Positions 12,136 through 54,605 of a stretch of DNA of 64,000 bases are shown one piece after another. The position numbers were made by a program, and so were the translations under genes. Each line of letters starts with the position of its first letter. Position 1 is the stretch's first letter. Below the pieces are notes generated by a model. The model was not told the origin of the DNA. It made no database searches and saw only the letters and a list, made by a program, of their open reading frames with translations. The stretch is from an uncultured Anaerolineales bacterium. GTDB taxonomy: Bacteria; Chloroflexota; Anaerolineae; B4-G1; SLSP01. The DNA lies in the NCBI GenBank assembly GCA_964530185.1, contig CAZHBB010000003.1, positions 13,563 to 77,562 on the forward strand, in the 5' to 3' direction.

Positions 12136-12264
12136 GCAGCGACTGCGCCCGACCAAGGGGATAGGCGACCATAAGCACTGACGTGGTTTTAGACCAGCGA
12201 TCGGTCCCAAAGAACAAATATGAAGGCCTGAGGCATGGCCAGATAATTATCATGGAGGTGAAAA

Positions 12265-13140
12265 GTGTTCAAGGAACGCATTCGTGAGTACTACGACGAC
12301 TTGACCCCAGGGTTCAGAAAACTTGCTGACTTCTTGGTCCTCAACACGATGGACGCTGCATTCTTGACAGCCAGTGAGTTGGCGAGACAGGTGGGAGTAG
12401 ACCCCGCTACGGTGGTGCGATTCTCTCAAGAGATCGGCTATTCAGGTTACAGGGAACTCTCCCGTGAAATCAAGCGCTATGTACGGGATCAGGTCACTGC
12501 CACCTACCGGGAGGCCAAGGAAGCCAAGACCGAAGAAGATGTCCTCAATGTGATCCTCGACAACACAGAACAGCAGTTACAGCATTTCCGCGCCACCGAG
12601 ATCCCCTCGCTTGCCAAGGCCATTGAAGTTCTGAAGCAGGCCAGCCGGATATGGATCACAGGTGAATTCACGTCATTCGATCTGGCTGCCTACTTGGCCA
12701 AGGCACTGAGTCCCACCGTCGGCGTGCCAACCAAGTATTTCCACCCCAGCATCTCCGAAACCGCAGCCGCCGTGGCTCAGATGAAGAAAGGTGATGCTCT
12801 GCTTGCACTGGCAATCGGCATCCCTGGCCTGGACACCGGCTATGCAGTCCACCTGGCAAAGGAGAAGGGGCTCCAAACCATCTGTGTGACAAACTCAGGA
12901 ACCGTGCTCCCTGCCCGCGAAGCCGATATTACCCTTGTAATACCGACACGCAGCCCGCTTGCCGTGGCCAGCTACAATCTATCTCTGCTGATCCTTGGTG
13001 TGATATGGGAAGCTCTGGTGGCAAGTCGCGTTGAGAAAGCCGCCGAGGCGTTCACGGCAGTCCACAGCAACATGAGTGAGATCCTTGAGCTACGCGGACA
13101 GACAAAGCCTTTCGAGGTGAGCACATTGGAAACCGAGTGA
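12265..13140 (+). CDS. MurR/RpiR family transcriptional regulator (paralogue of the upstream gene)
   Basis: GTG start with a GGAGGTG RBS. It has the same HTH_6 + SIS architecture as the upstream gene and is near-identical to it in the HTH region. Confidence 0.8.
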   Translation: MFKERIREYYDDLTPGFRKLADFLVLNTMDAAFLTASELARQVGVDPATVVRFSQEIGYSGYRELSREIKRYVRDQVTATYREAKEAKTEEDVLNVILDNTEQQLQHFRATEIPSLAKAIEVLKQASRIWITGEFTSFDLAAYLAKALSPTVGVPTKYFHPSISETAAAVAQMKKGDALLALAIGIPGLDTGYAVHLAKEKGLQTICVTNSGTVLPAREADITLVIPTRSPLAVASYNLSLLILGVIWEALVASRVEKAAEAFTAVHSNMSEILELRGQTKPFEVSTLETE

Positions 13141-13643: not shown

Positions 13644-13785
13644 CTCAGATACGATTACAGTCTACACGGTGTGGCGAGTGGCGCAAATCGAATCCGTAGG
13701 CAACGTCGTCTCGCCGAAGTTCTTTGCCCGGGGACCACTATGGAAAACATGGGCGCTGCGTCCAGCTGTGCTATACTATTGCACT

Positions 13786-18427: not shown

Positions 18428-19480
18428 TCACGAACCCACGGTCTGCCTTGAAACAGGTCTGCGTGCCATTGCCCGCAAACTCGACCAACCAGGACCAGCG
18501 CTGAAAAGCGCACTCAGAGCCATACAGATCGCAGAAGTGAGACACCAGGCGCAGGTTGCGCCGATGACAAAAGGCTCCAAGAACGTAAGGTAGATAGAAA
18601 AAGTCAACCCGAAAAGCGACATGAGCAGTCTGAGCGCAGAAGCGTACGTCTTGACAGTAGCCTGCCCCCATGCCACCAACGCTGTTGTCCCCAAGAGAGC
18701 CACATAACCCAACACCCCCAGGACAGCGACCGGCACCACACCAAAGAGCATTGCATACTGGCTCTGCTGTACAGCATTGCAATCGCCGACCGGACCACAG
18801 ACCGCCGTGCTCCCTGTTGTCTCGACGTAAGCCAAGTACGAGGCGGCACCGAGCCCGACTAGAAGTACCAAGAATAGCCCGCCAGCGCCGACGCGCTTCG
18901 CCAACGCTTCCTGCCAACCCCGTGGCTTGATCACCAGAATCAGGACAACGGTTAGCCCCACCAGCACCAACGTGGACAAAGTGTTCCCGACCGGGTCCTG
19001 CAGGAACCGGGCCCGCCAATCTCGATTTACCACCCCATTATCCCCTTCCAAACTGCGTACAGCTTCGACCATCCCAGGCAGGTCTGGCCAATCTGTCCCC
19101 CCCTGTTGCAGGGCATCATCGATAAGCCCCGGTAACTCAGTTGGAATATCCCGCGAGCCCACCAGGATATGCTCTCCAATGATCGCTGTCGGGACACCTA
19201 CCAACGAGGGGTGGTACTTGTCTACCACTGCATGGAATAACCTCTGACCATCAGGAGTGCTGATGTCGATCAGAGCAACGCGCAATTGATCCCCGTAATG
19301 GGACTGTAACGGCGGGAGTACCTCAGTCATCACCAGATGGCAATGTGGACAACTGGGATGATAGAAAAGCACAACGCGTACGATGGCTTGGTCAGCACTT
19401 GCGGTAACCGGCACGCTGAGCACCAGTAGACCTACAAGAACGCACACAAGAGCTCTGGAGCACCATGTCAACGGATTCAT
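18428..19480 (-). CDS. Thioredoxin-like domain fused to a vitamin K epoxide reductase (VKOR) domain
   Basis: Signal/TM segment, then a DsbA/Trx-like domain with CPHC, then a multi-TM VKOR-like domain with a loop Cys pair (CGPVGDC) and a CAWC active site. The likely start is at MNPLTW; the ORF-track start at 19543 adds 21 aa without an RBS. Confidence 0.6.
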   Translation of the reverse strand: MNPLTWCSRALVCVLVGLLVLSVPVTASADQAIVRVVLFYHPSCPHCHLVMTEVLPPLQSHYGDQLRVALIDISTPDGQRLFHAVVDKYHPSLVGVPTAIIGEHILVGSRDIPTELPGLIDDALQQGGTDWPDLPGMVEAVRSLEGDNGVVNRDWRARFLQDPVGNTLSTLVLVGLTVVLILVIKPRGWQEALAKRVGAGGLFLVLLVGLGAASYLAYVETTGSTAVCGPVGDCNAVQQSQYAMLFGVVPVAVLGVLGYVALLGTTALVAWGQATVKTYASALRLLMSLFGLTFSIYLTFLEPFVIGATCAWCLTSAICMALSALFSAGPGWSSLRAMARRPVSRQTVGS

Positions 19481-19692
19481 CAAGTTCCCTCCAAAGACCT
19501 GCAACGAGCTTGAGCCTGAACCGTGTCGACGCAATACACTCAATCATAACCGACACTGCGCAATGGGCAATGCCCCTCAGCACAGACTTCACCAAGCCGT
19601 GTCTCGTGCCACAGACGTCATGTCGCTCACTCAGCCCACTAACTCTCAGGCAGGAGCACGCCCCCAGAGGGCATGCCAGCCTCGAAATTGTG

Positions 19693-33025: not shown

Positions 33026-34036
33026 ATGATCAAGAGGCGCTGGTTACCGCTCGTGGTGGTTCTTACTATTCTTGTCGGTCTATTGCCTCAGATGGTAGCG
33101 GCCCAAAGTCCAAACTATTACACGTCCGTTATCCTGAGCGACATTACATCCGGCGCACCAGTGGTCGGTGGTACATTCACGACTGATCTGAGCCTGTCAA
33201 TTGTGAATAATGCCACCCCACAACTCGGGGTGATGGGCGCAGATGTCTGGATCCGCTTTGATCCCACGATCTTAGCCGTGGATGATGCAGACGACAATCC
33301 CGCCAACGGCATTCAAGTTAGCATTTCGACCGAGTTCTTCGGCGGCTCCGTATTTGTCGCCGCCAACGAGGTCACCACCTGCCCCAGCGGTGGAACCTGC
33401 GTCCATCTGGCATTGAGTCACTCGGGCGCCCCTATCACCAACCGCACCGGAAAAATCGCTACGATCACATGGGCTGGACTGGCAGCGGGAGACGGGGGAC
33501 TTGAGGTCGCACTTCCGGAGACGGTGCTTGCTGACGTGAACGGGGCAGACGTCCCGATCAACAGCACCACCGTACCCGCTATCGCCGTAGTGGAGCCGGG
33601 GACCATCTCGGGTAAGGTTCTGCGTCAGGGGACACGGACCGATCACGCCAATACTGAGGTCGTGGCCTACAACACAGGTGGTGGCGTTGTTGGCACTGCC
33701 ACAACCCTGGCTGATGGTAGCTTCGAGCTGATTGTGCCGATCGGGGGATCCTACCTGGTCCAGGCATCTTACAACGGCTACCTTAAGGCACAGAAGAGCA
33801 GCGTCTATGTGGTGGGAGCTGCTGTTGATCTAGGGACCACCACCATCCTGGGCGGCGATGTCAACGGCGACAACAACGTCAACATCCTCGATATCGTGAC
33901 GATCATCAGCCGCTACGGGACCACAGGCTGGGCCCCAACTGAGCCCGCCGACATCAATGATGACGGCGAAGTGAACATCTTCGATCTGACAATCGCAGCA
34001 GGCAACTTTGGCCGCTACGGCCCGCTGGGATGGTAA
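33026..34036 (+). CDS. Secreted cohesin-like domain / carboxypeptidase-regulatory-like domain / dockerin protein
   Basis: Signal peptide and a GAGGAGG RBS. A cohesin-like beta-sandwich lies at the N-terminus, followed by a CarboxypepD_reg-like domain (GTISGKVL...DGSFEL...GSYLVQASYNGY). The C-terminus has two dockerin calcium-binding repeats (DVNGDNNVNILD, DINDDGEVNIFD). Confidence 0.65.
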   Translation: MIKRRWLPLVVVLTILVGLLPQMVAAQSPNYYTSVILSDITSGAPVVGGTFTTDLSLSIVNNATPQLGVMGADVWIRFDPTILAVDDADDNPANGIQVSISTEFFGGSVFVAANEVTTCPSGGTCVHLALSHSGAPITNRTGKIATITWAGLAAGDGGLEVALPETVLADVNGADVPINSTTVPAIAVVEPGTISGKVLRQGTRTDHANTEVVAYNTGGGVVGTATTLADGSFELIVPIGGSYLVQASYNGYLKAQKSSVYVVGAAVDLGTTTILGGDVNGDNNVNILDIVTIISRYGTTGWAPTEPADINDDGEVNIFDLTIAAGNFGRYGPLGW

Positions 34037-34068: not shown

Positions 34069-35088
34069 ATGAAGTCCAATCGAGTGTTACGTTTGCTAAG
34101 CGCATGGCTCCTGCTCGCACTTGCTCTGTTGAGCACGCCAACGCCCCAGGCTCTGGCGGCCGATCCGGTCGTCAAGATCGTGCCCGCCACCAGCACCATC
34201 CAGGTAGGAGAGACCGTCGTGGTGAGCGTGACGGTGGAAAACGTCAGCAACCTCTTTGGAGCCGAATTCCATCTCTCCTTCGACGCCAGTATCCTCGAGG
34301 TCGTTGACGCCGACGCAGGCACCGGAGGCATCCAGATCAGCATGGGGGACTTCCTTGCTCCGGATTTCGTGGCCCAGAACCTGGCTGACAACGCCACTGG
34401 GACCATCGACTTCGCCATCTCTCAAATGGCCCCCCACGCTGCAGTGAGCGGCAGCGGCACACTGGCCACGATCACCTTCAAGGGCAAGGCGGCCGGGACA
34501 GCCAGCGTGAGCTTCACCAGCGTTTTGCTGGCGGACGCGGGCGGAGGACAGATTCCCTCCTCCTCACAGAACGCCACTGTCACTGTGACCAGCGGCGCAA
34601 CGGCAACTCCCTCACCCACCACACCGGCGCCTACGACACCGGCTCCGACCGCTTCGCCGACAACCCCACCTGCGACGACCACCCCACCCTCTTCATCATG
34701 CACTATCCAGGGGTACCACACGGTACGAGCAGGGGAGACGCTCTACTCCATCGGACGCGCCTATGCCACAGATCCCAACGCCATCGCCGCCTGCAACGGC
34801 ATTGTCAATCCCAGCCTTCTTTATGTGGGCACCCGATTGGGAATCCCAGTGGCTCCCTGGTCACCGATCCCACCCGGCCCTGTCGCAGTACGTCAGTTTA
34901 CCCCAGGTGGCAGCACGCCTGCCCCCTCGCCATCGACCGGCTGCCGTTATTACCACACAGTCCAATGGGGAGATACCCTGACCGCCATCGCACTTCGTTA
35001 TGGCTCTGACATCTGGAGCATTGGTCGCGCCAACTCCATCTACAACCTGAACCTCATCTACGCTGGACAGGTGTTGTGCATCCCATAA
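34069..35088 (+). CDS. Secreted cohesin domain protein with a Pro/Thr-rich linker and two LysM domains
   Basis: Signal peptide, then a cohesin domain (VVKIVPATSTIQVGETVVVSVTVENVSNLFGAEFHLSFDASILEV...GTLATITFKGKAAG), a PT-rich linker and two LysM repeats (YHTVRAGETLYSIGRAY..., YHTVQWGDTLTAIALRY...). Confidence 0.7.
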   Translation: MKSNRVLRLLSAWLLLALALLSTPTPQALAADPVVKIVPATSTIQVGETVVVSVTVENVSNLFGAEFHLSFDASILEVVDADAGTGGIQISMGDFLAPDFVAQNLADNATGTIDFAISQMAPHAAVSGSGTLATITFKGKAAGTASVSFTSVLLADAGGGQIPSSSQNATVTVTSGATATPSPTTPAPTTPAPTASPTTPPATTTPPSSSCTIQGYHTVRAGETLYSIGRAYATDPNAIAACNGIVNPSLLYVGTRLGIPVAPWSPIPPGPVAVRQFTPGGSTPAPSPSTGCRYYHTVQWGDTLTAIALRYGSDIWSIGRANSIYNLNLIYAGQVLCIP

Positions 35089-35169: not shown

Positions 35170-36678
35170 TCAGTGGAACGCACAACGGTACAGGAACAGC
35201 GACACTCCAGTGAAGTAGTAAGCCTCGTCGGTGCGACACGTGGTATCCAACCATGCCTTCACCAACTCACGCGCGTCCCACAGAGCGACTTCAGAGTAAA
35301 CAAGCCATACACGTTGGGTATCCCCTACGATGCGCGCCATCTCCTGGGTGACGTAACTCTCGCCTACCTGATAGCGGCCATCCGGCAACTGCCAGTTCGT
35401 GTATGGGGCTTCCGCCCATCTCCCCAGATCGCCATCTGCATAGAACGCATACACATAATGATTGTAAGGAATCTGAAACAACAGAAGATCGTCCTGTCCA
35501 CGTCGGGCGGTAACGACTTCCACCACGCGCTCGAACTGTGGTTTGATAGGATGAGCCATCTGCATCAACAAGCCATGGAGGTTGACGATCATCAACAGGG
35601 CCAGCAGGACAGCGGCCAGCGAGGGCCATCGGCGCCTCAAGGCATCTAAGCCAACCCCACCTAAGATATAGAAAGCTGGTGCGCTCCAGATCAAATACCG
35701 ATCGGTGAAGATCGGACTGCGCAAGGAGACAAGCCACACGGCCAGTAAGGGGAGAATGAGCCAGACCCCCAACTGAACCAGCCGCACCCTCCGGCTCAAC
35801 GCCAGCCGTACGAGCCCAGCCCATACCAACAGTGCAAAAGCTGTGACGATGACCCATAGTCCCGCTTCCCCACCCCAGCTTCCCTGATAGATGCCAGCGC
35901 TCCACCCCGTCAGCAGCATCTGTGCCATCTGCTCCAGCGAATAGCGGGGAAAACCTGTCTCCCGCTGTTGCAGGAGGAGGGGAAGTTGCCACTGCAGAAG
36001 TGGAAGATAGGGCAACACGAGCCCGGCAAGCACCAGCACGCCCCCAACTAGAGCCCGGGGGTGGCGGTCCCTGCAGAGCAGGAACCAGAGTACCAACACC
36101 GGAACCAAAAGGGCTGTCAGAATGTGGCTGTAGAATGCCAAACTCGCTGCCACCAACACCATTCCCCACCATACCAGGCGAGATGTTTGACAAGCTCTAT
36201 CCAAGGCATAGCACGCCAGGAGTACCAGAAAGGGCACCCAGGTGTACATCTTGATCTCCTGGGCATACCAGACCATGTATGGTGACAGAGCCGTCAACAG
36301 TGCGGCAATCATCGCGCCTCTCTTTCCACAGAGCCGCGTTGACAACCTGAAGAGCAAAGGGACGCTCAGCACTCCCCACAGCGTCGAGAGGAACCGCATG
36401 GCATAAGGGGTATCCCCCGCAAGCTCTATCCACGCCCGTAATAACATCGAATAGAGTGGACCATTCCATCCAGGCCGTGTCAGATTTGCCAGCAGTTCAC
36501 GCCAACCGAAGAATGCAAAGCGCCATTGGTCCACCTCATCCCGCCAGAGCCCCTGGCTTTGGATACCCATGAGGCGGACCAGATACGCCAGCAGGACTAA
36601 AGCGACGAGCACCAGCGTCATCTGGACAGGATGCTGCCTATGCCTACCTTGAACACGTCGCTTGGTCAATTGGTCCAC
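35170..36678 (-). CDS. GT-C-fold glycosyltransferase, ArnT/PMT (GT39/GT83)-like
   Basis: About 12 TM helices, with a WRDEVDQ acidic motif in the first extracytoplasmic loop. The 502-aa length is typical of 4-amino-arabinose/mannosyl transferases. Confidence 0.65.
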   Translation of the reverse strand: MDQLTKRRVQGRHRQHPVQMTLVLVALVLLAYLVRLMGIQSQGLWRDEVDQWRFAFFGWRELLANLTRPGWNGPLYSMLLRAWIELAGDTPYAMRFLSTLWGVLSVPLLFRLSTRLCGKRGAMIAALLTALSPYMVWYAQEIKMYTWVPFLVLLACYALDRACQTSRLVWWGMVLVAASLAFYSHILTALLVPVLVLWFLLCRDRHPRALVGGVLVLAGLVLPYLPLLQWQLPLLLQQRETGFPRYSLEQMAQMLLTGWSAGIYQGSWGGEAGLWVIVTAFALLVWAGLVRLALSRRVRLVQLGVWLILPLLAVWLVSLRSPIFTDRYLIWSAPAFYILGGVGLDALRRRWPSLAAVLLALLMIVNLHGLLMQMAHPIKPQFERVVEVVTARRGQDDLLLFQIPYNHYVYAFYADGDLGRWAEAPYTNWQLPDGRYQVGESYVTQEMARIVGDTQRVWLVYSEVALWDARELVKAWLDTTCRTDEAYYFTGVSLFLYRCAFH

Positions 36679-43650: not shown

Positions 43651-45219
43651 ATGGACGATTATATCCTGGCGCTCGACAATGGGACACAGAGTGTGCGAGC
43701 CCTGCTGTTCGACCCGCAGGGCAACCTGGTCGCACGCAGCCGTATCCCCATCACGCCCTATGTCTCCCCCAAACCCGGATGGGCTGAACAGGATCCTGAG
43801 TATTACTGGCACAGTCTGTGCCAGGCCTGTCACGCTCTGTGGCAACAGACCGACGTGCCGCGCGAAGCCATCGCTGGTGTGGCATTGACCACGCAGCGTG
43901 CCACCATGGTCAATGTGGATGCCACGGGACGCCCTCTACGCCCTGCTATCGTGTGGCTCGACCAGCGGCGCACAGAGGGCCTGAAACCAGTGGGCGGGAT
44001 ATGGGGGCTGCTTTTCCGACTGGCAGGGATGAGCGAGACAGTGGCCTACCTCCAGGCGGAGGCCGAGGCCAACTGGATCCGCACTCACCAGCCGGACATC
44101 TGGCGCAGGACACACAAGTACCTACTCTTATCCGGCTACCTGACGCACCGCCTCACCGGTCGCTTTGTGGACTCGGTAGGCTGTCAGGTAGGGTATCTGC
44201 CCTTTGACTACAAGAAACGCACTTGGGCGCCCGCCTGGGACTGGAAATGGCGCGCTGTCCCTATGGATCCCAGCCTTCTGCCTGAGCTCGTGCCGCCGGC
44301 AACCCCCCTGGGGTCCATCACAGGCCCTGCCTCCGAGGCCACAGGGATTCCCGAGGGCCTACCCCTTATCGCAGCCGCTGCAGACAAGGCATGTGAGGTC
44401 ATTGGCGCGGGCGGGCTCTATCCTCACATCGGCTGCTTGAGCTACGGCACAACCGCTACCATCAATACCACCCATCGGCGCTACATCGAGGTCATCCCGC
44501 TGATTCCCCCCTACCCCTCAGCGGTGCCGGATCACTACAGCCTTGAGATTCAGATCTATCGCGGCTTCTGGATGGTGAGCTGGTTCAAAGAGGAATTTGG
44601 ACACCTGGAACGTTGGTTGGCCAACGAGCGTGGCGTCGAGCCCGAGACCCTTTTCGACGAATTGGTCAACCAGGCACCTCCTGGCTCGATGGGCCTCATC
44701 CTGCAGCCATACTGGTCACCCGGCCTGAAGATACCCGGGCCGGAGGCCAAAGGCGCGGTGATCGGCTTTGGAGACGTCCATACGCGTGCGCACTTTTACC
44801 GCGCTATCCTGGAGGGGCTGGCCTATGCCCTGCGTGAAGCCAAAGAACGCATGGAGCGACGAAGCCATGTGTCGATCACAGAGCTGCGAGTATCGGGCGG
44901 AGGCTCGCAGAGCGACGCGGCCATGCAACTCACAGCCGACATCTTCGGCATGCCTACGGCCCGTCCGCACACCCACGAGACCTCAGGGCTAGGCGCGGCC
45001 ATCGACGCCGCAGTCGGGCTGGGCATCCACCCAGATTTCGCAACAGCCACCCAGGAGATGACTCGTATTGGGCGCGTTTTCGAACCCACGCCCCAGAACC
45101 GCGATCTTTACGAGGAACTGTACCAGCGCGTCTACCGCCGCATGTACCGACGTCTCAAGCCGCTCTACGAGGAGATCCGCAAAATCACAGGATACCCAAG
45201 CTATCCAGGCGAGCGCTAG
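43651..45219 (+). CDS. FGGY family carbohydrate kinase (xylulokinase/glycerol kinase-like)
   Basis: The N-terminal [17 protein letters not shown] motif and both FGGY_N and FGGY_C domains are present in a 522-aa protein. Confidence 0.8.
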
Positions 45220-45230
45220 CCCTCGGCAGG

Positions 45231-48200
45231 TCAAGGCAGAGCATAGGCGATCACAATGCCCTGGTGAGGGTCTGTGACGACTAATGCATCTCCAGCGACG
45301 ACGATCGCCTGTGGGAAGCTCAATCCCGCGCCAGCTCTCGCACTCAGTGACCAAAGGAACGCGCCCTGATCGTCGAAAGCCAGGACCCGGCTCATCAACG
45401 GATCGGTCACCAGCAGTTGGTCACCCGCCCAACTCAAAAAAGGTTTGAGATCCGGGTTGGTGACATCCCAGCCTGGAATGCGCCACTGTCGCACGGCGAT
45501 CCCCTCAGAGGTGAAGATCTGGACCCTCTGGTTCCAGGTGTCGGCCACGGCTATCATCCCATCTTCACGCACAGCGATGCCCACTGGTTCATCCAGCTTC
45601 CCCCCAGCCTGCCCCCATCCCCCGAACTCTCGCAGGAAACGGCCACTTTGGTCGAAGATCTGGATCCGTTTGTTCCCGGTGTCCGCCACCAGAAGTCCCC
45701 CCTCTGGAGTCAGAGCAACGCCCCGCGGGCCATAGAACAGGCCCTCCGTGCCGGGCACCCCAAGCTGCACAACCTGCACGGCTCCGCCCCAGACTGCCAG
45801 GACGTTGCCCTCTGAATCAAGATGTTGGATCCGATGGTTCCACGTGTCCGCAACAAAGAGGGTGCCGTCAGCAGCGACCGCAACGTCCCAGGGTTCACTG
45901 AACTGCCCAGGCTCGGTCCCGAATCCACCGAACCCGCCAAGAACGCCCGATGGGTCCAGATGCCAGATCCGATGATTGGCCGTATCGGCTACATAGAACG
46001 TTCCATCGGGCGCTACGTCCAGCCCCCGCAGGGCTGCCCCAGGCAGTGTAACCGACCAGAGGCGCGGCAGAGCACGATCGCTCAGTCCGTAGGGATCAGG
46101 CGGGGGTGTCTCCTCAACGCGCTCGGGCGGCGCGACGCTTTGCTGCGGCCAGTCGAAAGGCCAGGCCTGGGCTGCCACATCGCGCCGCACATAGAGACGA
46201 AACTCCTTTCGATAGGGCCAGGTGTGCAATGTGAAAGGATCCACCGGATTCTTGAGCTGCGCGTAGCGGTGATAATCACGACGCCACACGATATCCCACA
46301 GTGCCCGTCTCATGGCCGGATCGGTCAACGCACGATGGACTCGCTCCCATGTGAGTCCAAAGTAGTCCTGAATGGGCCACCACAGGTAAAGATAATCGTA
46401 GTGGACGTAATCCTGTCCCAGGATGTTCTCCACCACCGTATATTGTGCGCTCCCGGCAATCACCACCGGGCATTTCTGAAGCTGCTCAGGATCAGGGGTA
46501 GTGCCGTAGAAATAGTTGTTGGGAAACTCGACCATATACCAGGTGAATGGCCATGATCCATCTTCGCCATAAGCAACCCGTACCTCATTGGCCGTGCCCG
46601 TCATCTGCCACGAGACATCACGGACCTGCTGTAGGGCAACTTTGATATCGGGCGTTGCGTGAGCGTAGACCAGGAACTCCGTAGCCAGATCATCATTGAT
46701 GAAAGAGAGCATCACCATCGTGCGCACGGTGAGGACGCTCATCAAGAGAAGGATCAAGGTGCCAAGGACCCGCAGGCTCCGGCTTCCGCCTAGACGCCGC
46801 CCACTCCAGTACAAGGCTACCACCGCTCCCACCACCCCGAGGATCCCGCCCAGCATCCGACCTAGGGAACGAAGCGTGACCAGTGCCGGTCCCGCGGGGC
46901 TCATCCCTCCCTCCAGAGCAACACGCAGATCCTGCACACTGTCTCCGACGACGAAAAAGGCTACCAAACCTAGGACCAAGCCTCCGGCCAGGGTCCAGGG
47001 CGTTCCATCCATCCAGGGCACACCAGCAAGGCCTTTGAAGAACCTCCCCAGGAGCCAACCTGCCAGGAAGATACTGGGCAACGCGATATGAACCAGCAGC
47101 CAGGGCATCTTTTCGCCGGCCCAGGTGTACGCCCCCCACGACAGACAGGTCCAACCCGCCAGGAAGAGAGGAAACAACCCGCTGGCCAACTCTTGCGCGT
47201 TCTTATCCCGCCAGCGTTCGGCGATAGCCTGCTTCAAAGCGACGAAGACCCCCACCGACGCCAGGGCCAATGAGAGGTACTCGTACAGTCCCCCGATCAG
47301 CAGGTAATAGTAAGAGGGCTGGTTGCCACGCTTGACGCCTTGCTGAGCAAGCCAGTAGGCCAGGCCGCCTACCAGGCCCGAAAGGGCACCAAAGCCCCAT
47401 GTGAAGACCGTAGTGTACAGAGTGAGGAAGATGGCATAGTGGATGGCGGCAATTCTGAGCCATTGCACGCGGTCCCACCACAGACCCACGGCGATGGAGA
47501 GTACCAACGTCCCTAGGACAACCGCCGCACTGACCCACACAGCCTCACCTGGGATGACCCCAAAGTTTCCAGTGCGCACAGCGTCGTAGACCAGGGACAT
47601 ATCCACACCGGTGCCGAATTTGATCAGAATGGCCGATCCCAACGGCAGCGTCAGCGTACCCAGGACAACCAAGAGGCTGAAAAGGCGGTTCTGACGGAGC
47701 CGAGACTCACCCATCCCTCTCACCAGGGCGATGACCGCCCCCATTGCCAGGATGGCAGCGAGGCCCGCGCTGAGTCGTGCCCATTGCGGCACAAGGACAT
47801 CCGCCAACCGACCATCACCGCTCTCGCTCAGAGGAATCTCTTGCACGGCAGCCTGCTGTAACCCCAGCCCAAAGGCCATGAGCAGGATCATCGATGTCCC
47901 CAGCAGCAAGAGCATCACGGTGCGCAATTCGGAACGCTGCCAGGGCCCGTCCCATATCCAAATCAAGAGAGGGATTGCCAGCAGACCACCGAAGATAGCG
48001 ACATAGATGTACGAGGCCTCCTTAGTGGCATGCATGATGGAAAAGAACGCTGCCATCCACGCCAGCCAGTGTCTCTTGCCCGATGACAGGAAACTGAAGA
48101 TCGTCCAGAGTAGGCAGACAGCCGCCAGCATCAGAAGCACATCGTGGCGGGCATAGCGGGCGTAGTACGTCATTGACGGCGAAATCAACAGCAGCATCGA

Positions 48201-48539
48201 GGTCGTCAGCGCACCAGCCGGCGAGAGCCAGCGACGGAACAGGATCGGTGCCATAACCAGCAGGACCCCGGCCAGCGCCGGCACAACGCGCGAAGTGAAG
48301 TCATTTGGGCCCAACAGATGATATGTCAACGCCGTAAGCTCGAAGAGCAGAGGGCCGTGCATCATGGGATTGTGTTGAAAGCCCAGACCTGAGTAGAGAT
48401 TCCAGGAGAACTTAGTGTGAATACTCTCGTCGTGACTGATTGCCCGCTCGCCCAACGCATAGAAACGCGTGAAGAGGGCAAGCACCAACAGGACCAGGTA
48501 CAGAACACGCTCCCAACGGCTTAGTGGATGCTCCGTCAT
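45231..48539 (-). CDS. GT-C-fold membrane glycosyltransferase-like protein fused to a C-terminal NHL-repeat beta-propeller
   Basis: The N-terminal polytopic region has an HDESIH motif in loop 1, as in the TIGR03663 / PMT-like GT-C family. The C-terminal roughly 300 aa contain at least five NHL repeats (ADTANHRIWHLD, ADTWNHRIQHLD, ADTGNKRIQIFD, ADTWNQRVQIFT ...). The start at MTEHPL is preceded by GGGAGA. Confidence 0.6.
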   Translation of the reverse strand: MTEHPLSRWERVLYLVLLVLALFTRFYALGERAISHDESIHTKFSWNLYSGLGFQHNPMMHGPLLFELTALTYHLLGPNDFTSRVVPALAGVLLVMAPILFRRWLSPAGALTTSMLLLISPSMTYYARYARHDVLLMLAAVCLLWTIFSFLSSGKRHWLAWMAAFFSIMHATKEASYIYVAIFGGLLAIPLLIWIWDGPWQRSELRTVMLLLLGTSMILLMAFGLGLQQAAVQEIPLSESGDGRLADVLVPQWARLSAGLAAILAMGAVIALVRGMGESRLRQNRLFSLLVVLGTLTLPLGSAILIKFGTGVDMSLVYDAVRTGNFGVIPGEAVWVSAAVVLGTLVLSIAVGLWWDRVQWLRIAAIHYAIFLTLYTTVFTWGFGALSGLVGGLAYWLAQQGVKRGNQPSYYYLLIGGLYEYLSLALASVGVFVALKQAIAERWRDKNAQELASGLFPLFLAGWTCLSWGAYTWAGEKMPWLLVHIALPSIFLAGWLLGRFFKGLAGVPWMDGTPWTLAGGLVLGLVAFFVVGDSVQDLRVALEGGMSPAGPALVTLRSLGRMLGGILGVVGAVVALYWSGRRLGGSRSLRVLGTLILLLMSVLTVRTMVMLSFINDDLATEFLVYAHATPDIKVALQQVRDVSWQMTGTANEVRVAYGEDGSWPFTWYMVEFPNNYFYGTTPDPEQLQKCPVVIAGSAQYTVVENILGQDYVHYDYLYLWWPIQDYFGLTWERVHRALTDPAMRRALWDIVWRRDYHRYAQLKNPVDPFTLHTWPYRKEFRLYVRRDVAAQAWPFDWPQQSVAPPERVEETPPPDPYGLSDRALPRLWSVTLPGAALRGLDVAPDGTFYVADTANHRIWHLDPSGVLGGFGGFGTEPGQFSEPWDVAVAADGTLFVADTWNHRIQHLDSEGNVLAVWGGAVQVVQLGVPGTEGLFYGPRGVALTPEGGLLVADTGNKRIQIFDQSGRFLREFGGWGQAGGKLDEPVGIAVREDGMIAVADTWNQRVQIFTSEGIAVRQWRIPGWDVTNPDLKPFLSWAGDQLLVTDPLMSRVLAFDDQGAFLWSLSARAGAGLSFPQAIVVAGDALVVTDPHQGIVIAYALP

Positions 48540-48608
48540 GCATATCTCCCGAAATGATGTGGCCACCCAATGATAGCAGAGCCACCGAAAACCCCAACCA
48601 CGGCTGTG

Positions 48609-51341
48609 TTATGGGCTTTGTACTCTCAGCTCGAGCGGCAGATCCAACGCGTCACTTCCCGTCTCCCAGGGGATCCGGGCACCGCTGTCACCATGGTAGA
48701 GTCCTACCCTCAGGCGCACCGGCCCCTCAGACAAGGGTTGCAGCCATGTGAGTGGATGTACATCCTCGATGATCTCACCAGGGACCCAGCCTGTTGTAGG
48801 GCGGTGCCACAGAGCGGGCTCGGCATCGTGCTGCGCGACCAACGTGCCCGCTTCTGTCACCAGATGTACAAACACCTTCAAGCGCTGTGTCGCGGCTTGT
48901 GGTCCAGCCTCCCAGATCAGCGTCACCGTACACGGCGCCCCTGCCGTGAGAACCGGCTCAGGCGTGACCTCGTAGCCGCGTAACACCGCCACATCGTCCA
49001 TTCGCACGTTCAGGGCATGCGTCATGGGGGGCAGCTCAAACCGGTGCTCACCCTCCAGGATCCGAATCTGATCCAACTCCCAACTTCCACCTTCCATCTC
49101 CACCAGCAGTTGGGCCGGGCCCTCTTTTGCACTCGAGGGAACTGTCAATCGTACATGCTCCAACAGCGGCCTCCCAGGCGGTGTGCCGGAGGCAAGGGCA
49201 GGCAATGGCGTGGCAGTCAGGCGTTGCTCACCTTGCCACAGGGCCAATGTGGCCCCAGTGCATGGACAAGCCCCTTCCTCACGCCGCCACAACAACGTAA
49301 CGACCAGATCACCACCGGGCGCGAGCTCATACTCACTCAATCGGTGGCCCTCCAATTGAAGTCCCGGAAGCAGTTGACGTACTTCACCCTGCCAGGACTC
49401 TTCCGGAAGATACAGCGACGGCTCCTGCCATGGGGTCACCCGTGGTCTGACGGAACCCACGACGACAGCCGGTTGTGGCCCTGACTGAGAAACCAGATCG
49501 ACGGGGGTGATAGTCTGGTTGCCTTCGTACAACCCCGCCTCCAACCTGTGCACCAGCGGCGCGAGCCCCACTGGCAGCGGGACCAGGTGATAAGTGGAAA
49601 TGGGCTTTCCATCCCAGTGATCGGTCCCCCGCAATGTGACGTCCACCAACAGGTCATCCTCTGCAGCCACCAACACACCTTCAGAGTCGTATAGACGAAG
49701 AGCCACACTGAGGCGGGTGGGGGCTGGTTCACCATCCCAACACAGACGCATCGGTAGTGCAGCCCCGCTGATGGGGCGCTCCTGGAAAGCAACACCCACA
49801 AGGCATGGTCCTCCTCCCTCAGCACACCACGCAGGCAGCGGCCGGCAGGGCGGCATGGCTGCCATCCCTTCCATCAGGTACTCCTCCAGGAACACACCCT
49901 GGAACTGCTGTCGGGCAACCAGCCTGCCATGCCACGTCAGTGCGGCCCGGACGCTGCCATAAGCATCCAGCGCGCCACGCTCGTAGTCCAGCGCAAACAC
50001 CCGTCGTGCCCCCTGGTCCTCCAGGAGCACAGCTCCGGCATCATCCGCCCCAAACGCCTCAGGGACCATCATGGGGTGCACAAGCCCGATGTCATACTGC
50101 ACCAGAGACCAATCCGTGTGGGGGATCAGGACCACATCACCTGCTTCGCCCTCCTGGCGGAGGAAGGCCGCAACGGCCCGCACATCGGTGCGGGCATAGC
50201 GTGGATCGACTAGGTAAGCCCGTATGCCCAGCACAGAGCTCACCAGCACCGCAGCCAGCAATCCCATGCGCAGGCCGGGGTTCAGGCGAGACAGCGTTGT
50301 AAGCAGAGCGATCAGCATCCATCCACCAGGGATCAGGGCATACAGGTAGCGAGGGTGAGACTGAGGGCTCAACCACCAGATGCCCATAGAACCCAACAGA
50401 GGAATCAACCAGAGGTACACCCAGGGCTCCAGGCGAGATCTCGTGAGCCTATGCCGCACACCCTCCAACACGGCAACCCCCAACCACGCCCCCACCAGCG
50501 CCGTTGCCCGCATCAGCAGAGGGTCTGCCAGTGCCTGCGGCATCCCCATGATTTGGAAGGCCATGATCAAGCGCAACACATAGAACCACGGGGCCGGTTC
50601 ATCCAACACATTGCCCAGTCCAGCCTGAGACTGCAGAGCCATTGTCCCGACGCGCAGCACGAAGACCGCCCATGGGACCAACAGAACCCATGCTACCCCA
50701 CAAGCCGTCAACCACAGGCGCACCAGATTGCGTCCGACCTCCTGGGCAGTATCCTCCATACCTCCGAGAGGCCGCCATATTCCCAGCAGCCGCGCGGTGA
50801 CCGCCAGCAGAGCACCGCCAAGGGCGATCACGCCCCCGTAATGCGTCAGGAGCAGAGCAGCGATGGCAATACCCAGAAGCACACCCCGACCCCGCCAGTG
50901 GCGCATGTCGGCTCGCAGTGAGGGCCAGGCATGAGCCCACAACACCAGGGAGAATAGGGGTAAGAAAATATAGGCCCGTACCTCTTGACCATACACCACG
51001 ACCGGGGGTGCAAGGGCGATCAAGAGCCCTGCGACATGTCCCGCCCGAGCGCTGACCCGTCCCCGCAGGAAAGCTTGCACCACTGCGGGTAAAAGGGTGG
51101 CCGCGAGCACAGAGAGATAACGCCCGGTGAATGGCGTGCGGCCAGCGGCCATGGCCCACACCTTCAAGGCCACGAAATAGAGGGGGGGGTGAATATTGGA
51201 GGCGCGATCCAAAAGCAGGTCTCGCCAGGGTAGTCCAGCAAGGTGAAGGCTGATCCCCTCATCCCACCAGATAGATTGCATCCTCAACGTGAGCGTGAGG
51301 AGTACGAACAACAGCAAAGTAGGCAGGAGCCTTCGCGTCAC
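48609..51341 (-). CDS. GT-C-fold membrane glycosyltransferase (ArnT/PMT-like) with a large repeated C-terminal domain
   Basis: GTG start. A WWDEGISLH motif is in the first loop and the polytopic core spans about 450 aa. The C-terminal roughly 450 aa carry the same repeat-domain type as the paralogues at 13786 and 16068 (LHLVTEAGTLVAQHDAEPALWHRPTTGWVPGEIIEDVHPL). Confidence 0.6.
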   Translation of the reverse strand: MTRRLLPTLLLFVLLTLTLRMQSIWWDEGISLHLAGLPWRDLLLDRASNIHPPLYFVALKVWAMAAGRTPFTGRYLSVLAATLLPAVVQAFLRGRVSARAGHVAGLLIALAPPVVVYGQEVRAYIFLPLFSLVLWAHAWPSLRADMRHWRGRGVLLGIAIAALLLTHYGGVIALGGALLAVTARLLGIWRPLGGMEDTAQEVGRNLVRLWLTACGVAWVLLVPWAVFVLRVGTMALQSQAGLGNVLDEPAPWFYVLRLIMAFQIMGMPQALADPLLMRATALVGAWLGVAVLEGVRHRLTRSRLEPWVYLWLIPLLGSMGIWWLSPQSHPRYLYALIPGGWMLIALLTTLSRLNPGLRMGLLAAVLVSSVLGIRAYLVDPRYARTDVRAVAAFLRQEGEAGDVVLIPHTDWSLVQYDIGLVHPMMVPEAFGADDAGAVLLEDQGARRVFALDYERGALDAYGSVRAALTWHGRLVARQQFQGVFLEEYLMEGMAAMPPCRPLPAWCAEGGGPCLVGVAFQERPISGAALPMRLCWDGEPAPTRLSVALRLYDSEGVLVAAEDDLLVDVTLRGTDHWDGKPISTYHLVPLPVGLAPLVHRLEAGLYEGNQTITPVDLVSQSGPQPAVVVGSVRPRVTPWQEPSLYLPEESWQGEVRQLLPGLQLEGHRLSEYELAPGGDLVVTLLWRREEGACPCTGATLALWQGEQRLTATPLPALASGTPPGRPLLEHVRLTVPSSAKEGPAQLLVEMEGGSWELDQIRILEGEHRFELPPMTHALNVRMDDVAVLRGYEVTPEPVLTAGAPCTVTLIWEAGPQAATQRLKVFVHLVTEAGTLVAQHDAEPALWHRPTTGWVPGEIIEDVHPLTWLQPLSEGPVRLRVGLYHGDSGARIPWETGSDALDLPLELRVQSP

Positions 51342-51446
51342 CGAATCTTTCCTCGGTCACCTCATGGCATCTGATCAGAGAACCGGACGGCTGGCCAGCA
51401 GCTATGTCAGCCGCCCGCAGGACACCGCAGATCTATATTACGTCGA

Positions 51447-53219
51447 CTAACTCTCCAGGCGAGCCATTTCCTCTTCGATGACACTCTCATCCAGCTTCTT
51501 GAAGAGCGGGCGGGGCTTGGTGAGGATCCAGCCCGCGGGTAGCGTTTCAAAAGCCCAGCGGCCAGAGGCGGCCGAGGCATCATAACGCAGCACCTCGTGG
51601 CCACCATGAGTGTCGTCGACCGAGGCGATCGTTTGCTCTCCAAACAGTGGTGTCTCATAACCCAGGAGGCGATGCAACTTCTCAGATGAGAAAGGCAGGA
51701 ACGGCGCCAACAACGTCTTGAGGGCATTGATGACCTGCAGGGCCACGTAGAGAGTGGTTCCTGCTGACGCACGGTCAGTCTTAATCTCAGACCAGGGGGA
51801 CTTTACCTCGAGATAGCGGTTGGCCTCACGTGCCAGACCCATCGCCTCCGACAATGCAGCCCGGAACCGACGACCCGCCAGATGCCCGCCCACCAGGTCA
51901 AAAGCAGTCTGTGCTTTTGCCAGCATCGCCTCATCGACCTCACTGAGCGGCCCAGGGGTCGGTACCTCACGGAAGTGCCGATAGGTGAACGACAGGACAC
52001 GATGGGCCAGGTTGCCCCAAATACCTACCAATTCACCATTGTTGCGCTGAACGAAGTCGTCCCAGTAGAAGTCGCTGTCGCTCGTCTCAGGCATCACAAC
52101 CGTGATGTAATACCGGATTGCATCTGCATCGTACCGACTCAACACATCCGGCAGCGTGATCATATGCCCCCGGCTCTTCGAAAATTGCGTGCCCGACAGA
52201 TTCATGAACTCATTCGCCGGCACATCAGTGGGAAGGTTAAACCGCTTACCCGGATCTTCCTCATACAGCCGTTCAGCCCCGATGAGCTCGGCGGGCCAGA
52301 TCACAGTGTGGAAGACTGTGTTATCCTTGCCGATGAAGTAATAGGTCTCTGCCTGAGGGTCGTACCACCACTCTTTCCATGCCTCGGGGGTCCCTCTCAG
52401 TCTCATGGCCTCGATGCTCGCGGACAGATATCCGATCACCGCCTCGAACCACACGTAAAGGCGCTTTGTCTCATATCCCTCAATCGGCACGGGGATTCCC
52501 CAATCGATATCTCGGGTGATAGGACGTCCTCTGAGACCGCTCTTCACATAGTTGCGAGAGAAGTTGAGCACGCTGGGGCGCCAGTCCTCCTTGTCCTCCT
52601 CCAAATAGGCCAACACAGCCGGCTCGAGTTTGGGCAAATCCAGAAAGAAATGTTCTGTCTCACGGATCACCGGAATCGATCCATCGATCTTGCATCGTGG
52701 GTTACCCAGTTCGAGCGCATCCAGGATCTTCCCACAGTTATCACATTGGTCACCGCGGGCCTCCTCATAGCCACAGTAAGGGCACACACCCTCCACATAC
52801 CGATCCGGCAAGAAGCGCCCTAGAGTCTCCGAATAGAACTGGCGCTGTGTCTCGATGTAGAGATAGCCATTACGCAGCAACGCCAGGAACATGTCCTGTG
52901 CGACACGGTGGTGATTCGGGGTATCCGTGTGGGTGAACAGATCATAGGAAATGCCGATCTCCTGCTGGGTCTCCAGGAAACGACGATGAAAACGTTCGAA
53001 GACCTCCCGTGAAGTCACCCCCTCCTGCTCGGCACGCAGCGCCACGGGCGTGCCGTGTGAGTCCGAGCCCGACACCATCAGCACATCGTTGCCCGCCAGA
53101 CGATGATAGCGAGCGAAAATATCCGCCGGTAAATATGCCCCGGCCAGATGCCCAATGTGGAGATCCCCATTTGCATAGGGCCAGGCGACAGCAACCAGGA
53201 TCTTCCTTTGTCCGTTCAT
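51447..53219 (-). CDS. metG: Methionine--tRNA ligase
   Basis: HIGH motif ([15 protein letters not shown]), KMSKS region, and the zinc knuckle CPYCG...CDNCG. The start at MNGQRKIL is preceded by GAAGGAGGAG. Confidence 0.9.
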
Positions 53220-53291
53220 CCACTCTCCTCCTTCATCCATACATGCCTAGTATACCAGAGGTCGTTGAAACGCTAAGAAGACCTCACCCAA

Positions 53292-53420: not shown

Positions 53421-54605
53421 TCATCTGAGATAGTCCTTTAGATCCCGGCTTCGACTGGGATGACGCAGACGACGCAACGCCTGCCCCTCAATCTGGCGAA
53501 TGCGCTCCCGGGTAAGTCCGAACTTCTGCCCCACCTCTTCGAGTGTGTAAGTCCGCCCATTGTGCAGGCCAAATCGCATCCGCAGGATCCGCACCTCCCG
53601 TGGGTTGAGCGTTGAGAGTGCCTCCTCGATACGGTCTCGCAGCATCGCCTGATAGGCAGTGTCGGGTGGTGTCGGTGTCTGATCATCCTCGATGAAGTTG
53701 CTCAGCTCGCTGTCCTCATCCTCACCCACTGGCTTCTCAAGGCTCAGGGGGCGCCATGACACGCGCATCATCCACTGAACCTTCTTGGGTTCCATTCCCA
53801 TCTCCTCAGCCAATTCCTCGGGGGTCGGCCGTGTGCCACGTTCCTGTTCGATCTCCTGAGCCCGCCGGTAGAGCCGACGGATACGGTCGCTCATGTGGAC
53901 GGGAACCCGAATGGTGCGACCTTGATCCGCAATCGCGCGTGTGATCGTCTGCCGAATCCACCAAGTCGCATAGGTGCTAAAGCGATAGCCACGCTGGTAT
54001 TCGAACTTCTCCACAGCCTTCATCAGGCCCAGGTTGCCCTCCTGGATCAGGTCCAAGAAGGGCACGTTACGGCCGATGTATTTCTTGGCAATACTGACAA
54101 CCAACCTGGTGTTGGCGCGGATGAGATGGTCACGCGCCGCCAGACCCTCTGACACGATCTGCTCCAGACAGGCTCGCTCCTCAGCCGACCTCACGCCTTC
54201 CTGCAGCAGGCGTTGCGCTTCCCGCCCCTGCTCGATCTTCTTGGCCAGAGCCACCTCTTCCTCACTGGTGAGCAGGGGCACCCGAGCCATCTCTCGGAGA
54301 TACAGAGCCACCGTGTCGTCGACGCTGATGCCATCCAGACTGTAGATGTCCTCCTCTGTTACATCCTCCGCGGCCTCATCCTCATTCCACGGCTCCCCGA
54401 AGGCCGCTCCGTCTTCCGGACCTCGGAGCCCATCTCCACCTTCCTCCCCGCTGACCTCGATGTCGATGCCCGCCTTTCGTAGCTTCGCCATCACACTTTC
54501 AAGAGAAACTTCTCCGTCCAGGGACGCCAATGCCTCAATCACATCATCGGCAGATAGAAACCCTTGCGACTCCGCCTTCTCGAGCAGATCTGCAATAACG
54601 TCCAT
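53421..54605 (-). CDS. sigA: RNA polymerase sigma-70 family principal sigma factor
   Basis: An acidic region 1.1 is followed by regions 2-4, including the C-terminal [29 protein letters not shown] motif. Confidence 0.85.

Follow-up and report, generated by a model that had tools for sequence, protein, structure and literature searches.

Gene B, in a window of 64,000 nucleotides of DNA from an uncultured Anaerolineales bacterium, encodes an Agl23/TIGR03663-family GT-C membrane protein that continues without interruption through a conserved α/β domain and a linker into a six-bladed NHL β-propeller. At least 598 Chloroflexota genomes at species level carry a fusion of this type, and cultivated Anaerolineae such as Bellilinea, Leptolinea and Pelolinea encode B. 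We consider it probable that B and its upstream neighbour A are two separate GT-C membrane glycosyltransferases, which would use lipid-phosphate-linked sugars on the outer side of the membrane and bind the acceptor through accessory domains. Most likely B is a core envelope gene throughout the Anaerolineae, and A a lineage-restricted insertion between metG and B. The features of the locus are as follows.

45231..48539, minus strand: gene B, Agl23/TIGR03663-family GT-C membrane protein, 1102 residues (open reading frame, HMM, AlphaFold2)
45234..46064, minus strand: B, six-bladed NHL β-propeller, residues 826-1102
46065..46154, minus strand: B, flexible Pro-rich linker, residues 796-825 (low pLDDT)
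46155..46703, minus strand: B, highly conserved α/β domain, residues 613-795, predicted extracytoplasmic (AlphaFold2 secondary structure)
46704..48539, minus strand: B, membrane domain of GT-C fold, residues 1-612, about 17 transmembrane helices, predicted N-in/C-out
48417..48437, minus strand: B, SHDESIH motif (S35-H41) where the first predicted extracytoplasmic loop begins, with presumed catalytic D37/E38 (translation)
48540..48608, minus strand: 69-bp spacer between A and B, carrying the Shine-Dalgarno sequence of B, without a terminator-like site
48609..51341, minus strand: gene A, GT-C (PMT_2/GT39-like) membrane protein with C-terminal β-sandwich modules, 910 residues
48612..49856, minus strand: A, three β-sandwich modules without a Pfam model, at about residues 500-631, 655-761 and 775-908 (AlphaFold2)
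49857..50207, minus strand: A, predicted extracytoplasmic α/β domain, about residues 379-495 (AlphaFold2 secondary structure)
50208..51341, minus strand: A, membrane domain, residues 1-378, about 11 transmembrane helices
51249..51269, minus strand: A, WWDEGIS motif (D27/E28) (translation)
51342..51446, minus strand: metG-A spacer of 105 bp, in which a GAGGA Shine-Dalgarno sequence precedes the GTG start of A
51447..53240, minus strand: metG, methionyl-tRNA synthetase (Pfam tRNA-synt_1g, E = 6.6e-143), co-directional upstream neighbour, given as context and outside the system

Both A and B are real genes rather than chance reading frames, with more than 100 clusters of conserved homologues for each. 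The longest reading frame of B (45231..48566, minus strand, stop codon at 45231-45233) would give 1111 residues from the first GTG at 48566, and the ATG at 48539 has a GGGAG Shine-Dalgarno sequence 6 nt upstream. The resulting 1102-residue form is identical to an NCBI entry, and the same start is found in the homologues P0001 and P0002. A reading of the DNA made from its sequence alone had placed both genes directly downstream of metG, and this is correct. Its length of 1102 residues for B also stands with the ATG, its 42-bp gap between the genes does not: 42 bp belongs with the GTG start, so the two figures were inconsistent, a trivial point. The possibility that the NHL region is a separate or split gene was rejected: the reading frame runs from the GT-C into the NHL domain without a stop or frameshift, and 80 non-identical, full-length orthologues of 33-61% identity have the same architecture. 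No terminator is predicted in the run metG-A-B; scans of the locus for promoters and terminators gave counts at the level of shuffled controls, and Rfam and tRNA scans gave no matches.

The membrane domain of B is assigned both by profile and by fold. Its score against TIGR03663 (225 bits) is well above the curated cutoff of 126.25, and Pfam gives matches to PMT_2 (34 bits) and NHL (113 bits). Pfam gave no match to the PMT core (PF02366), MIR, TPR or PMT_4TMC for either protein. A profile search of PDB sequences returned NHL matches only for B and nothing for A; a comparison of folds was thus needed for the membrane domains. In that comparison the N-terminal polytopic modules superpose on solved GT-C enzymes, with ArnT, AftA, AftB, AftD and EmbA among the top matches (the AlphaFold2 model of B has a pLDDT of 85.3). 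Eight short loops rich in Lys and Arg alternate with Lys/Arg-poor ones, giving 17 transmembrane helices, and the positive-inside rule, together with GT-C precedent, suggests that the N-terminus is inside and the C-terminal 490 residues outside. The HDESIH loop motif already noticed in the sequence is present as SHDESIH; it does not vary among 52 homologues, and its conservation is 97% or higher in 81 sequences of 33-61% identity. Other conserved residues predicted to face outwards are R128/R131 and H61-G62-P63.

Beyond the membrane, the α/β domain of B has no match in Pfam or NCBIfam, and is without an identified structural relative, since a Foldseek search of the PDB with B returned propellers only. 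It is nevertheless highly conserved, with E621, Y625, A626, H627, W667, Y668, W721, P722, Y726 and W774 each at 97% or more. The linker that follows has a pLDDT below 50 at residues 796-812 and the lowest mean column conservation of any segment (0.19). The propeller, which scores above the Pfam NHL gathering threshold, comprises four canonical blades (ADTxNxRIQ) and two degenerate ones.

For A the assignment takes a different route. The protein has no Pfam match and scores only 16.2 bits (E = 0.004) against TIGR03663, far below the cutoff, and it is therefore not filed under that family. Its predicted GT-C status draws on the structural model, on the annotation of its homologues (PMT_2 or 'glycosyltransferase family 39 protein' at NCBI) and on profile-profile alignment, in which the core of A matches the B family with an hhalign probability of 93.9% and WWDEGIS is aligned with SHDESIH. 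A BLASTP comparison also links A with the PMT_2 region of gene 35170 in the window (E = 4e-12). The acidic pairs D27/E28 of A and D37/E38 of B are invariant, each in the predicted first extracytoplasmic loop, and the motifs of A, including H51-P52-P53, E120/R122 and H329-P-R-Y, are kept in 55 A sequences with identities as low as 28%. The repeated C-terminal domain ascribed to A corresponds to the three β-sandwiches of the model, the last two of which align with the C-termini of genes 13669 and 16068. It takes the model or hhalign to reveal these repeats; a self-BLAST of the C-terminus for internal repeats found nothing at E ≤ 10. Modules of this type recur C-terminally in GT-C enzymes from several Pfam families.

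The window had been credited with five GT-C enzymes. Three are firmly supported, including gene 35170 with a PMT_2 score of 63 bits. Neither of the others has a family assignment above threshold: gene 16068 scores 26.6 bits for DUF2142, short of the 30.1-bit cutoff, and the sole link for gene 13669, which has no family match, is its paralogy with 16068 at 26% identity. Alignment of the A family with both is limited to the C-terminal modules, so they are no more than candidate GT-C enzymes. No DUF2298 protein was found among the large open reading frames tested in the window.

Are A and B a conserved unit? The shared strand, short gaps and lack of a terminator fit the description of an operon-like pair, and the two genes may be co-transcribed here. 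Conservation of the pair, on the other hand, was not borne out by synteny, and we do not regard it as obligate. A adjoins B in only 4 of 86 B loci (L001, L002, L007 and L010), all from close relatives; it is reduced to a 150-residue remnant in L008 and missing from the other 81, and the copies in L001 and L007 are split by frameshifts. The order rpoD-metG-(A)-B is kept in L001, L007, L008, L012, L015, L019 and L026, with B straight after metG in L015 and L026. Other lineages have a different GT-C gene ahead of B, or none. B is conserved throughout the class, and its links with rpoD-metG, with sucCD or with other GT-C paralogues are commoner than that with A. About 15 loci have a 600-residue TIGR03663-like paralogue next to B. 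In 12 of the 86 a DUF2298/TIGR03662 gene (545 bits) is near B, and the TIGRFAM description also gives a co-occurrence of TIGR03663 with such genes. Most neighbours of B are housekeeping genes (sucCD, a pseudouridine synthase, RlmN, rpoD-metG), and the idea of a conserved glycosylation operon around B was set aside on this ground. No gene for donor synthesis, such as a GT2 polyprenyl-phosphate glycosyltransferase, was found beside the pair, either at this locus or in those neighbourhoods that are conserved.

These data suggest a mechanism in which each enzyme would take a sugar from a polyprenyl-phosphate-linked donor in the outer leaflet of the cytoplasmic membrane. Catalysis would fall to the invariant Asp-Glu pair found where the first extracytoplasmic loop begins, with the lipid phosphate held by the outward-facing Arg and His residues (R128/R131 and H61-G62-P63 in B; H51-P52-P53, E120/R122 and H329-P-R-Y in A). 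The sugar would then pass to an envelope acceptor gripped by the C-terminal extracytoplasmic domains: in B the α/β domain and the propeller, the latter on a flexible 30-residue tether, and in A the α/β domain and three β-sandwiches like carbohydrate-binding modules. NHL propellers elsewhere bind proteins, RNA or small molecules, so the binding of an acceptor by the propeller is proposed only by analogy; the earlier suggestion that it recognises substrate proteins is plausible on the same footing.

A two-enzyme unit, in which A and B would either join as a heterodimer in the manner of Pmt1-Pmt2 or EmbA-EmbB or carry out successive steps on one acceptor, would suit the arrangement of genes seen here. 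It would also suit the four loci in which A and B adjoin, the further adjacencies that shared contig sizes imply for P0002/P0123, P0009/P0141, P0051/P0158, P0058/P0150, P0059/P0149 and P0054/P0164, and the frequent presence elsewhere of another GT-C gene before B. We nevertheless think such a unit unlikely, given the many loci that lack A, its decay in several others and the direct succession of metG and B in two. The acceptor itself could be a glycan or glycolipid rather than a protein, for example a secondary cell-wall polysaccharide, a lipoglycan or a sheath, as for the Emb/Aft enzymes or ArnT, with the propeller and β-sandwiches of B, A or both serving as glycan- or wall-binding modules. 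The modules of A do resemble GH2 sugar-binding domains, the Wzt O-antigen-binding domain and carbohydrate-binding modules; the propeller of B has several invariant Trp residues (W884, W900, W1002, W1019 and W1024); the top fold matches include ArnT, AftA, AftB, AftD and EmbA; and a class-wide gene in housekeeping surroundings fits a basic envelope polymer. This is a real possibility, which we rate below that of the broader proposal of two acceptor-binding transferases. For the propeller to be instead a sensor, like that of PknD, or an enzyme in its own right of the lyase or lactonase type seems very improbable. Its conserved positions are those of the structural NHL signature D-T-x-N-x-R, its best matches by far are the non-enzymatic TRIM-NHL domains, and those of its residues that are conserved at 97% or more in the 81 sequences include no His or metal-ligand set, the absence of which led us to reject a PAL-like catalytic propeller.

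Does B transfer a sugar, or does it move one across the membrane? As an Agl23-like translocator or scramblase it would handle polyprenyl-phosphate-hexose or a lipid-linked oligosaccharide, its extracytoplasmic domains passing the lipid-linked sugar to other enzymes such as A. The curated name of TIGR03663, to which B scores so strongly, is 'flippase activity-associated protein Agl23', and B is often found beside another GT-C gene, whether A, the 600-residue paralogue or TIGR03662/DUF2298. The Haloarcula hispanica protein HhAgl23, the only experimentally studied member of the family, is reported to flip lipid-linked sugars rather than transfer them; when purified it moves M5GN2-PP-Dol in proteoliposomes, and it suppresses yeast rft1-Δ (PMC11182771). 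We judge this explanation distinctly unlikely for B. The fold and the invariant acidic motif of loop 1 are those of catalytic GT-C enzymes, and a conserved extracytoplasmic part of 490 residues is hard to explain if B were no more than a scramblase. Genetic work on Agl23 (Lu, 2020) reportedly speaks of 'utilisation' of hexose-P-dolichol, which a transferase would explain equally well.

B can also be set beside known systems. It has the N-terminal DE dipeptide, HGP tripeptide and conserved Arg of the Agl23 family; it differs in being bacterial, in its longer membrane domain (612 residues against a 435-position model), and in the added α/β domain and propeller; Agl23 itself is reported to flip dolichol-linked sugars (PMC11182771). 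PMT1, PMT2 and PMT4 are GT39 enzymes with a MIR domain, TMTC1-4 carry TPRs and TMEM260 a TPR-like domain; in B the accessory domain is instead a C-terminal NHL propeller on a tether, and no PMT, MIR or TPR domain is found. There is no detectable sequence-family membership with ArnT (GT83) or the mycobacterial Emb/Aft enzymes, whose acceptors (lipid A; arabinogalactan/LAM) are not expected in Anaerolineae. In the extracellular NHL sensor of Mycobacterium tuberculosis PknD and in eukaryotic TRIM-NHL proteins the propeller goes with a kinase or an E3 ligase, whereas here its membrane partner is a GT-C enzyme. A literature search found no paper that joins GT-C, NHL and propeller, and TIGR03663 turned up in one unrelated paper. 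The architecture is uncharacterised but already catalogued, its proteins being named in public annotation; neither A nor B departs from known GT-C logic, and the pair is a local arrangement.

Most cell envelopes are built or decorated by GT-C enzymes, whose choice of acceptor is usually set by an accessory domain. More speculatively, and we think this unlikely, the B family could be the catalytic core of an undescribed, Anaerolineae-wide system of envelope O-glycosylation, or could couple translocation and transfer in one polypeptide. In the former case the tethered propeller would pick out surface proteins that have already folded, or sheath or S-layer components still being made, for modification by an Agl23-type GT-C protein; bacteria would then have their own equivalent of PMT, TMTC and TMEM260, one that recognises its acceptor through a new kind of module. 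The latter would bear on the dispute over whether Agl23-type proteins are flippases or transferases, archaeal Agl23 being reported as a lipid-linked-oligosaccharide flippase and yet having the fold and motifs of a transferase; the bacterial orthologue, whose soluble domains are large, might lend itself more readily to structural work and assays. For a poorly studied class of filamentous bacteria, a GT-C enzyme bearing a tethered NHL propeller is a candidate for a class-wide modification of the envelope.

The product of gene B is an uncharacterised architecture of a known enzyme kind, comprising a GT-C domain, an alpha/beta domain and an NHL propeller. It scores 225 bits against NCBIfam TIGR03663 ('flippase activity-associated protein Agl23'; cutoff 126.25), and Pfam matches PMT_2 at residues 70-226 (34 bits) and NHL over four stretches (113 bits), so that profile searches back the GT-C assignment made in the sequence-only reading. 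An AlphaFold2 model from 52 homologues (pLDDT 85.3) divides the chain as follows.

Residues 1-612: helical membrane domain
Residues about 630-792: alpha/beta domain
Residues 796-825: proline-rich linker, low confidence
Residues 826-1100: propeller of 24 strands, making six four-stranded blades, the first strand closing the ring

The DSSP string together with hydropathy gave an assignment of seventeen hydrophobic helices, under which K/R-rich and K/R-poor short loops alternate. The N-terminus would lie inside; the loop with SHDESIH and the C-terminal 490 residues would face outward.

A word-indexed protein search with B yielded over 120 clusters (45-94% identity), made up of full-length proteins with about 1100 residues; those with names are called 'TIGR03663 family protein' or 'flippase activity-associated protein Agl23' and come from Anaerolineae metagenome-assembled genomes. 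When one genome per species was scanned, at least 598 genomes gave matches; the best 80 of these are all Chloroflexota (Anaerolineales, Thermoflexales, Bellilinea, Leptolinea, Pelolinea), and the closest B among the matches listed has 61% identity. Across 81 non-identical full-length sequences (33-61% identity), the residues conserved at 97% or above begin with a block comprising R25, R32, S35-H36-D37-E38 and H41, and continue with H61-G62-P63, R84, R128-Y129, R131, R404-G405, Q407-P408, Y412, A474-G475-E476, M478-P479-W480-L481 and H484; the alpha/beta domain contributes E621, Y625-A626-H627, W667-Y668, W721-P722 and Y726, and blades 2-4 the NHL signature D-T-x-N-x-R. Conservation is lowest in the linker. 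This conservation across distribution, domains and motifs implies that the fusion is ancient and has been selected as a whole. The GT-C/NHL fusion is thus upheld as a single gene, not two genes split by an undetected stop or frameshift, and the conserved full-length homologues also rule out an assembly artefact as its source.

Residues 404-412 of B (window about 47304..47330, minus strand) lie in a loop predicted to face outward and form an R-G-x-Q-P-x-Y-Y-Y motif, invariant in a 52-sequence alignment. It resembles 'YYYxG', the motif that gave the sister family TIGR03662 (Chlor_Arch_YYY) its name, a likeness that hints at an element common to both families.

B is the last of four co-directional minus-strand genes.

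53421..54605, minus strand: rpoD-like sigma-70 gene
51447..53240, minus strand: metG
48609..51341, minus strand: gene A, 910 residues, GTG start preceded by GAGGA
45231..48566, minus strand: gene B, longest ORF
43651..45219, plus strand: FGGY sugar kinase gene, convergent, next after B

The ATG of B at 48539, preceded at 6 nt by the Shine-Dalgarno sequence GGGAG, gives a product of 1102 residues; NCBI contains this exact sequence, and the nearest homologues are equally long. The length first proposed for B therefore agrees with this start and a 69-bp gap between A and B, the 42-bp gap quoted with it fitting an alternative GTG start instead. A lies downstream of co-directional metG, as described earlier, across a 105-bp spacer. 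Neither spacer contains a terminator-like hairpin, the full scan for promoters and terminators being at background level, and Rfam and tRNA scans of the locus gave no matches. Long antisense ORFs lie inside B, at 45417..46556 (plus strand) and similar positions, for example 45822..46556 (plus strand, 244 residues), and one of about 280 residues recurs opposite B in 55 related loci; most likely these are no genes, simply the shadow of a conserved high-GC coding frame.

Do A and B form an operon-like pair? The common strand, the 69-bp gap and the missing hairpin favour this proposal, which does not extend beyond close relatives. Among the B-carrying loci of related genomes (L numbers), A adjoins B only in L001 (B 59% by tblastn), L002 (51%), L007 (60%) and L010 (54%), with several further adjacencies suggested among metagenomic clusters by contigs of equal length. 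The A orthologue is two overlapping ORFs in L001 (6911..9878) and L007 (5015..7817), and in L008 a 150-residue remnant (2176..2625) remains between metG and B. These split or reduced forms could reflect gene decay or frameshifts from metagenome assembly, and A looks unstable in some close relatives. B directly follows metG in L026 and L015, and in L003, L014, L016 and L018 it is preceded by overlapping genes for two other large membrane proteins, both with the A-type C-terminal module. In about 15 Anaerolineae loci (L023, L025, L027, L029, L030, L032, L036, L039, L040, L043, L046, L047, L060, L063, L064) a TIGR03663-like paralogue of about 600 residues, lacking the propeller, lies immediately upstream; its 100-105 bits against TIGR03663 fall short of the cutoff, and it carries a DE motif of its own ('STDEAM' loop). 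A TIGR03662/DUF2298 'Chlor_Arch_YYY' gene (545 bits) is near B in 12 loci. Housekeeping genes are the commonest conserved neighbours of B: about 20 loci have sucC and sucD on its downstream side, and on the upstream side the gene is one for a pseudouridine synthase or for RlmN. Since adjacency is limited to close relatives, B is the conserved element and the A-B arrangement is lineage-specific; a second GT-C protein beside B is suggestively recurrent, not universal.

Gene A has no Pfam match and meets TIGR03663 only at E = 0.004. Its homologues (28-99% identity, about 900 residues) often contain PF13231 and are called 'glycosyltransferase family 39 protein' by NCBI, and its N-terminus aligns with the part of window gene 35170 that matches PMT_2 (E = 4e-12). 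The A and B family profiles align across TM1-TM4 (probability 93.9%), placing WWDEGIS on SHDESIH and IHPPLYF on MHGPLLF, and D27/E28, H51-F56, E120/R122 and H329-P-R-Y are invariant in 55 A sequences. Together these place A in the GT-C superfamily. Its last beta-sandwich (residues 770-910; window 48612..49034, minus strand) belongs to a module of about 110-130 residues with the motif ...TVFxHL..dG..vAQHDg.P..G.RPT..W..GE.i.D.H.L...GLYD..TG.R. This copy alone finds 11,657 representatives (50% clustering) among 1.84 billion proteins, 3,692 of them at E <= 1e-10. The module usually occurs as 2-4 C-terminal tandem copies in proteins of 700-1100 residues; nine that we examined have N-terminal GT-C domains of various Pfam families (PMT_2, TMEM260-like, PTPS_related, YfhO, PMT), and in these nine no Pfam-A model covers the module. 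A is a further PMT_2-type GT-C enzyme, and its accessory module is an abundant one that lacks a Pfam model.

The last two sandwiches of A also align to the C-termini of two other window genes (hhalign 98.7-98.8%).

13669..16071, plus strand: membrane protein, 800 residues
16068..18392, plus strand: membrane protein, 774 residues

These overlap by 4 bp, both end in A-type tandem modules, and their products are paralogues (26% identity over 789 residues). Five GT-C enzymes had been counted in the window; A, B and 35170, a clear PMT_2 protein (63 bits), stand, whereas 16068 matches only DUF2142 below cutoff (26.6 bits against 30.1) and 13669 has no Pfam or NCBIfam match. As both carry modules found elsewhere on GT-C enzymes, a total of five is plausible from sequence. 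Two RpiR-family regulator genes (11191..13140) precede this pair, and just downstream and convergent lies a gene (18428..19543, minus strand) for a 371-residue protein with a long, unassigned N-terminal extension and a C-terminal VKOR (vitamin K epoxide reductase) domain. Directly beside 35170..36678 are two adjacent genes, for a dockerin type I and CarboxypepD_reg protein (33026..34036, plus strand) and a cohesin and two-LysM protein (34069..35088, plus strand), possibly a cohesin-dockerin pair anchored to peptidoglycan, here in a Chloroflexota genome.

The evidence best supports a reading of A and B as lipid-phosphate-sugar-dependent GT-C transferases that work at the outward side of the membrane. 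The invariant Asp-Glu pair of loop 1 would be the catalytic element in both, conserved outward-facing basic residues would hold the donor phosphate, and placing the acceptor would fall to the extracytoplasmic domains. ArnT, PMT and PglB share this arrangement of acidic loop-1 catalysis with basic residues at the donor phosphate. The tethered propeller of B would fit capture of a macromolecular acceptor, protein and glycan alike; for A, with its sugar-binding-like sandwiches, we lean towards a glycan or wall-associated candidate.

The main rival is that B is a flippase like H. hispanica Agl23, not a transferase. Agl23, the only studied member of TIGR03663, is reported to be a translocator: it rescues yeast rft1-delta and, when purified, translocates M5GN2-PP-dolichol in proteoliposomes (PMC11182771). 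It shares the motifs of B, so that the sequence evidence fits either a flippase or a transferase.

The original observation is confirmed and its interpretation partly supported. Public annotation already lists the architecture of B, which is widespread in one bacterial class; we consider it rather unlikely that B represents a class-wide system for glycosylating the envelope, with a new module to recognise the acceptor, or that it couples flippase and transferase activities.
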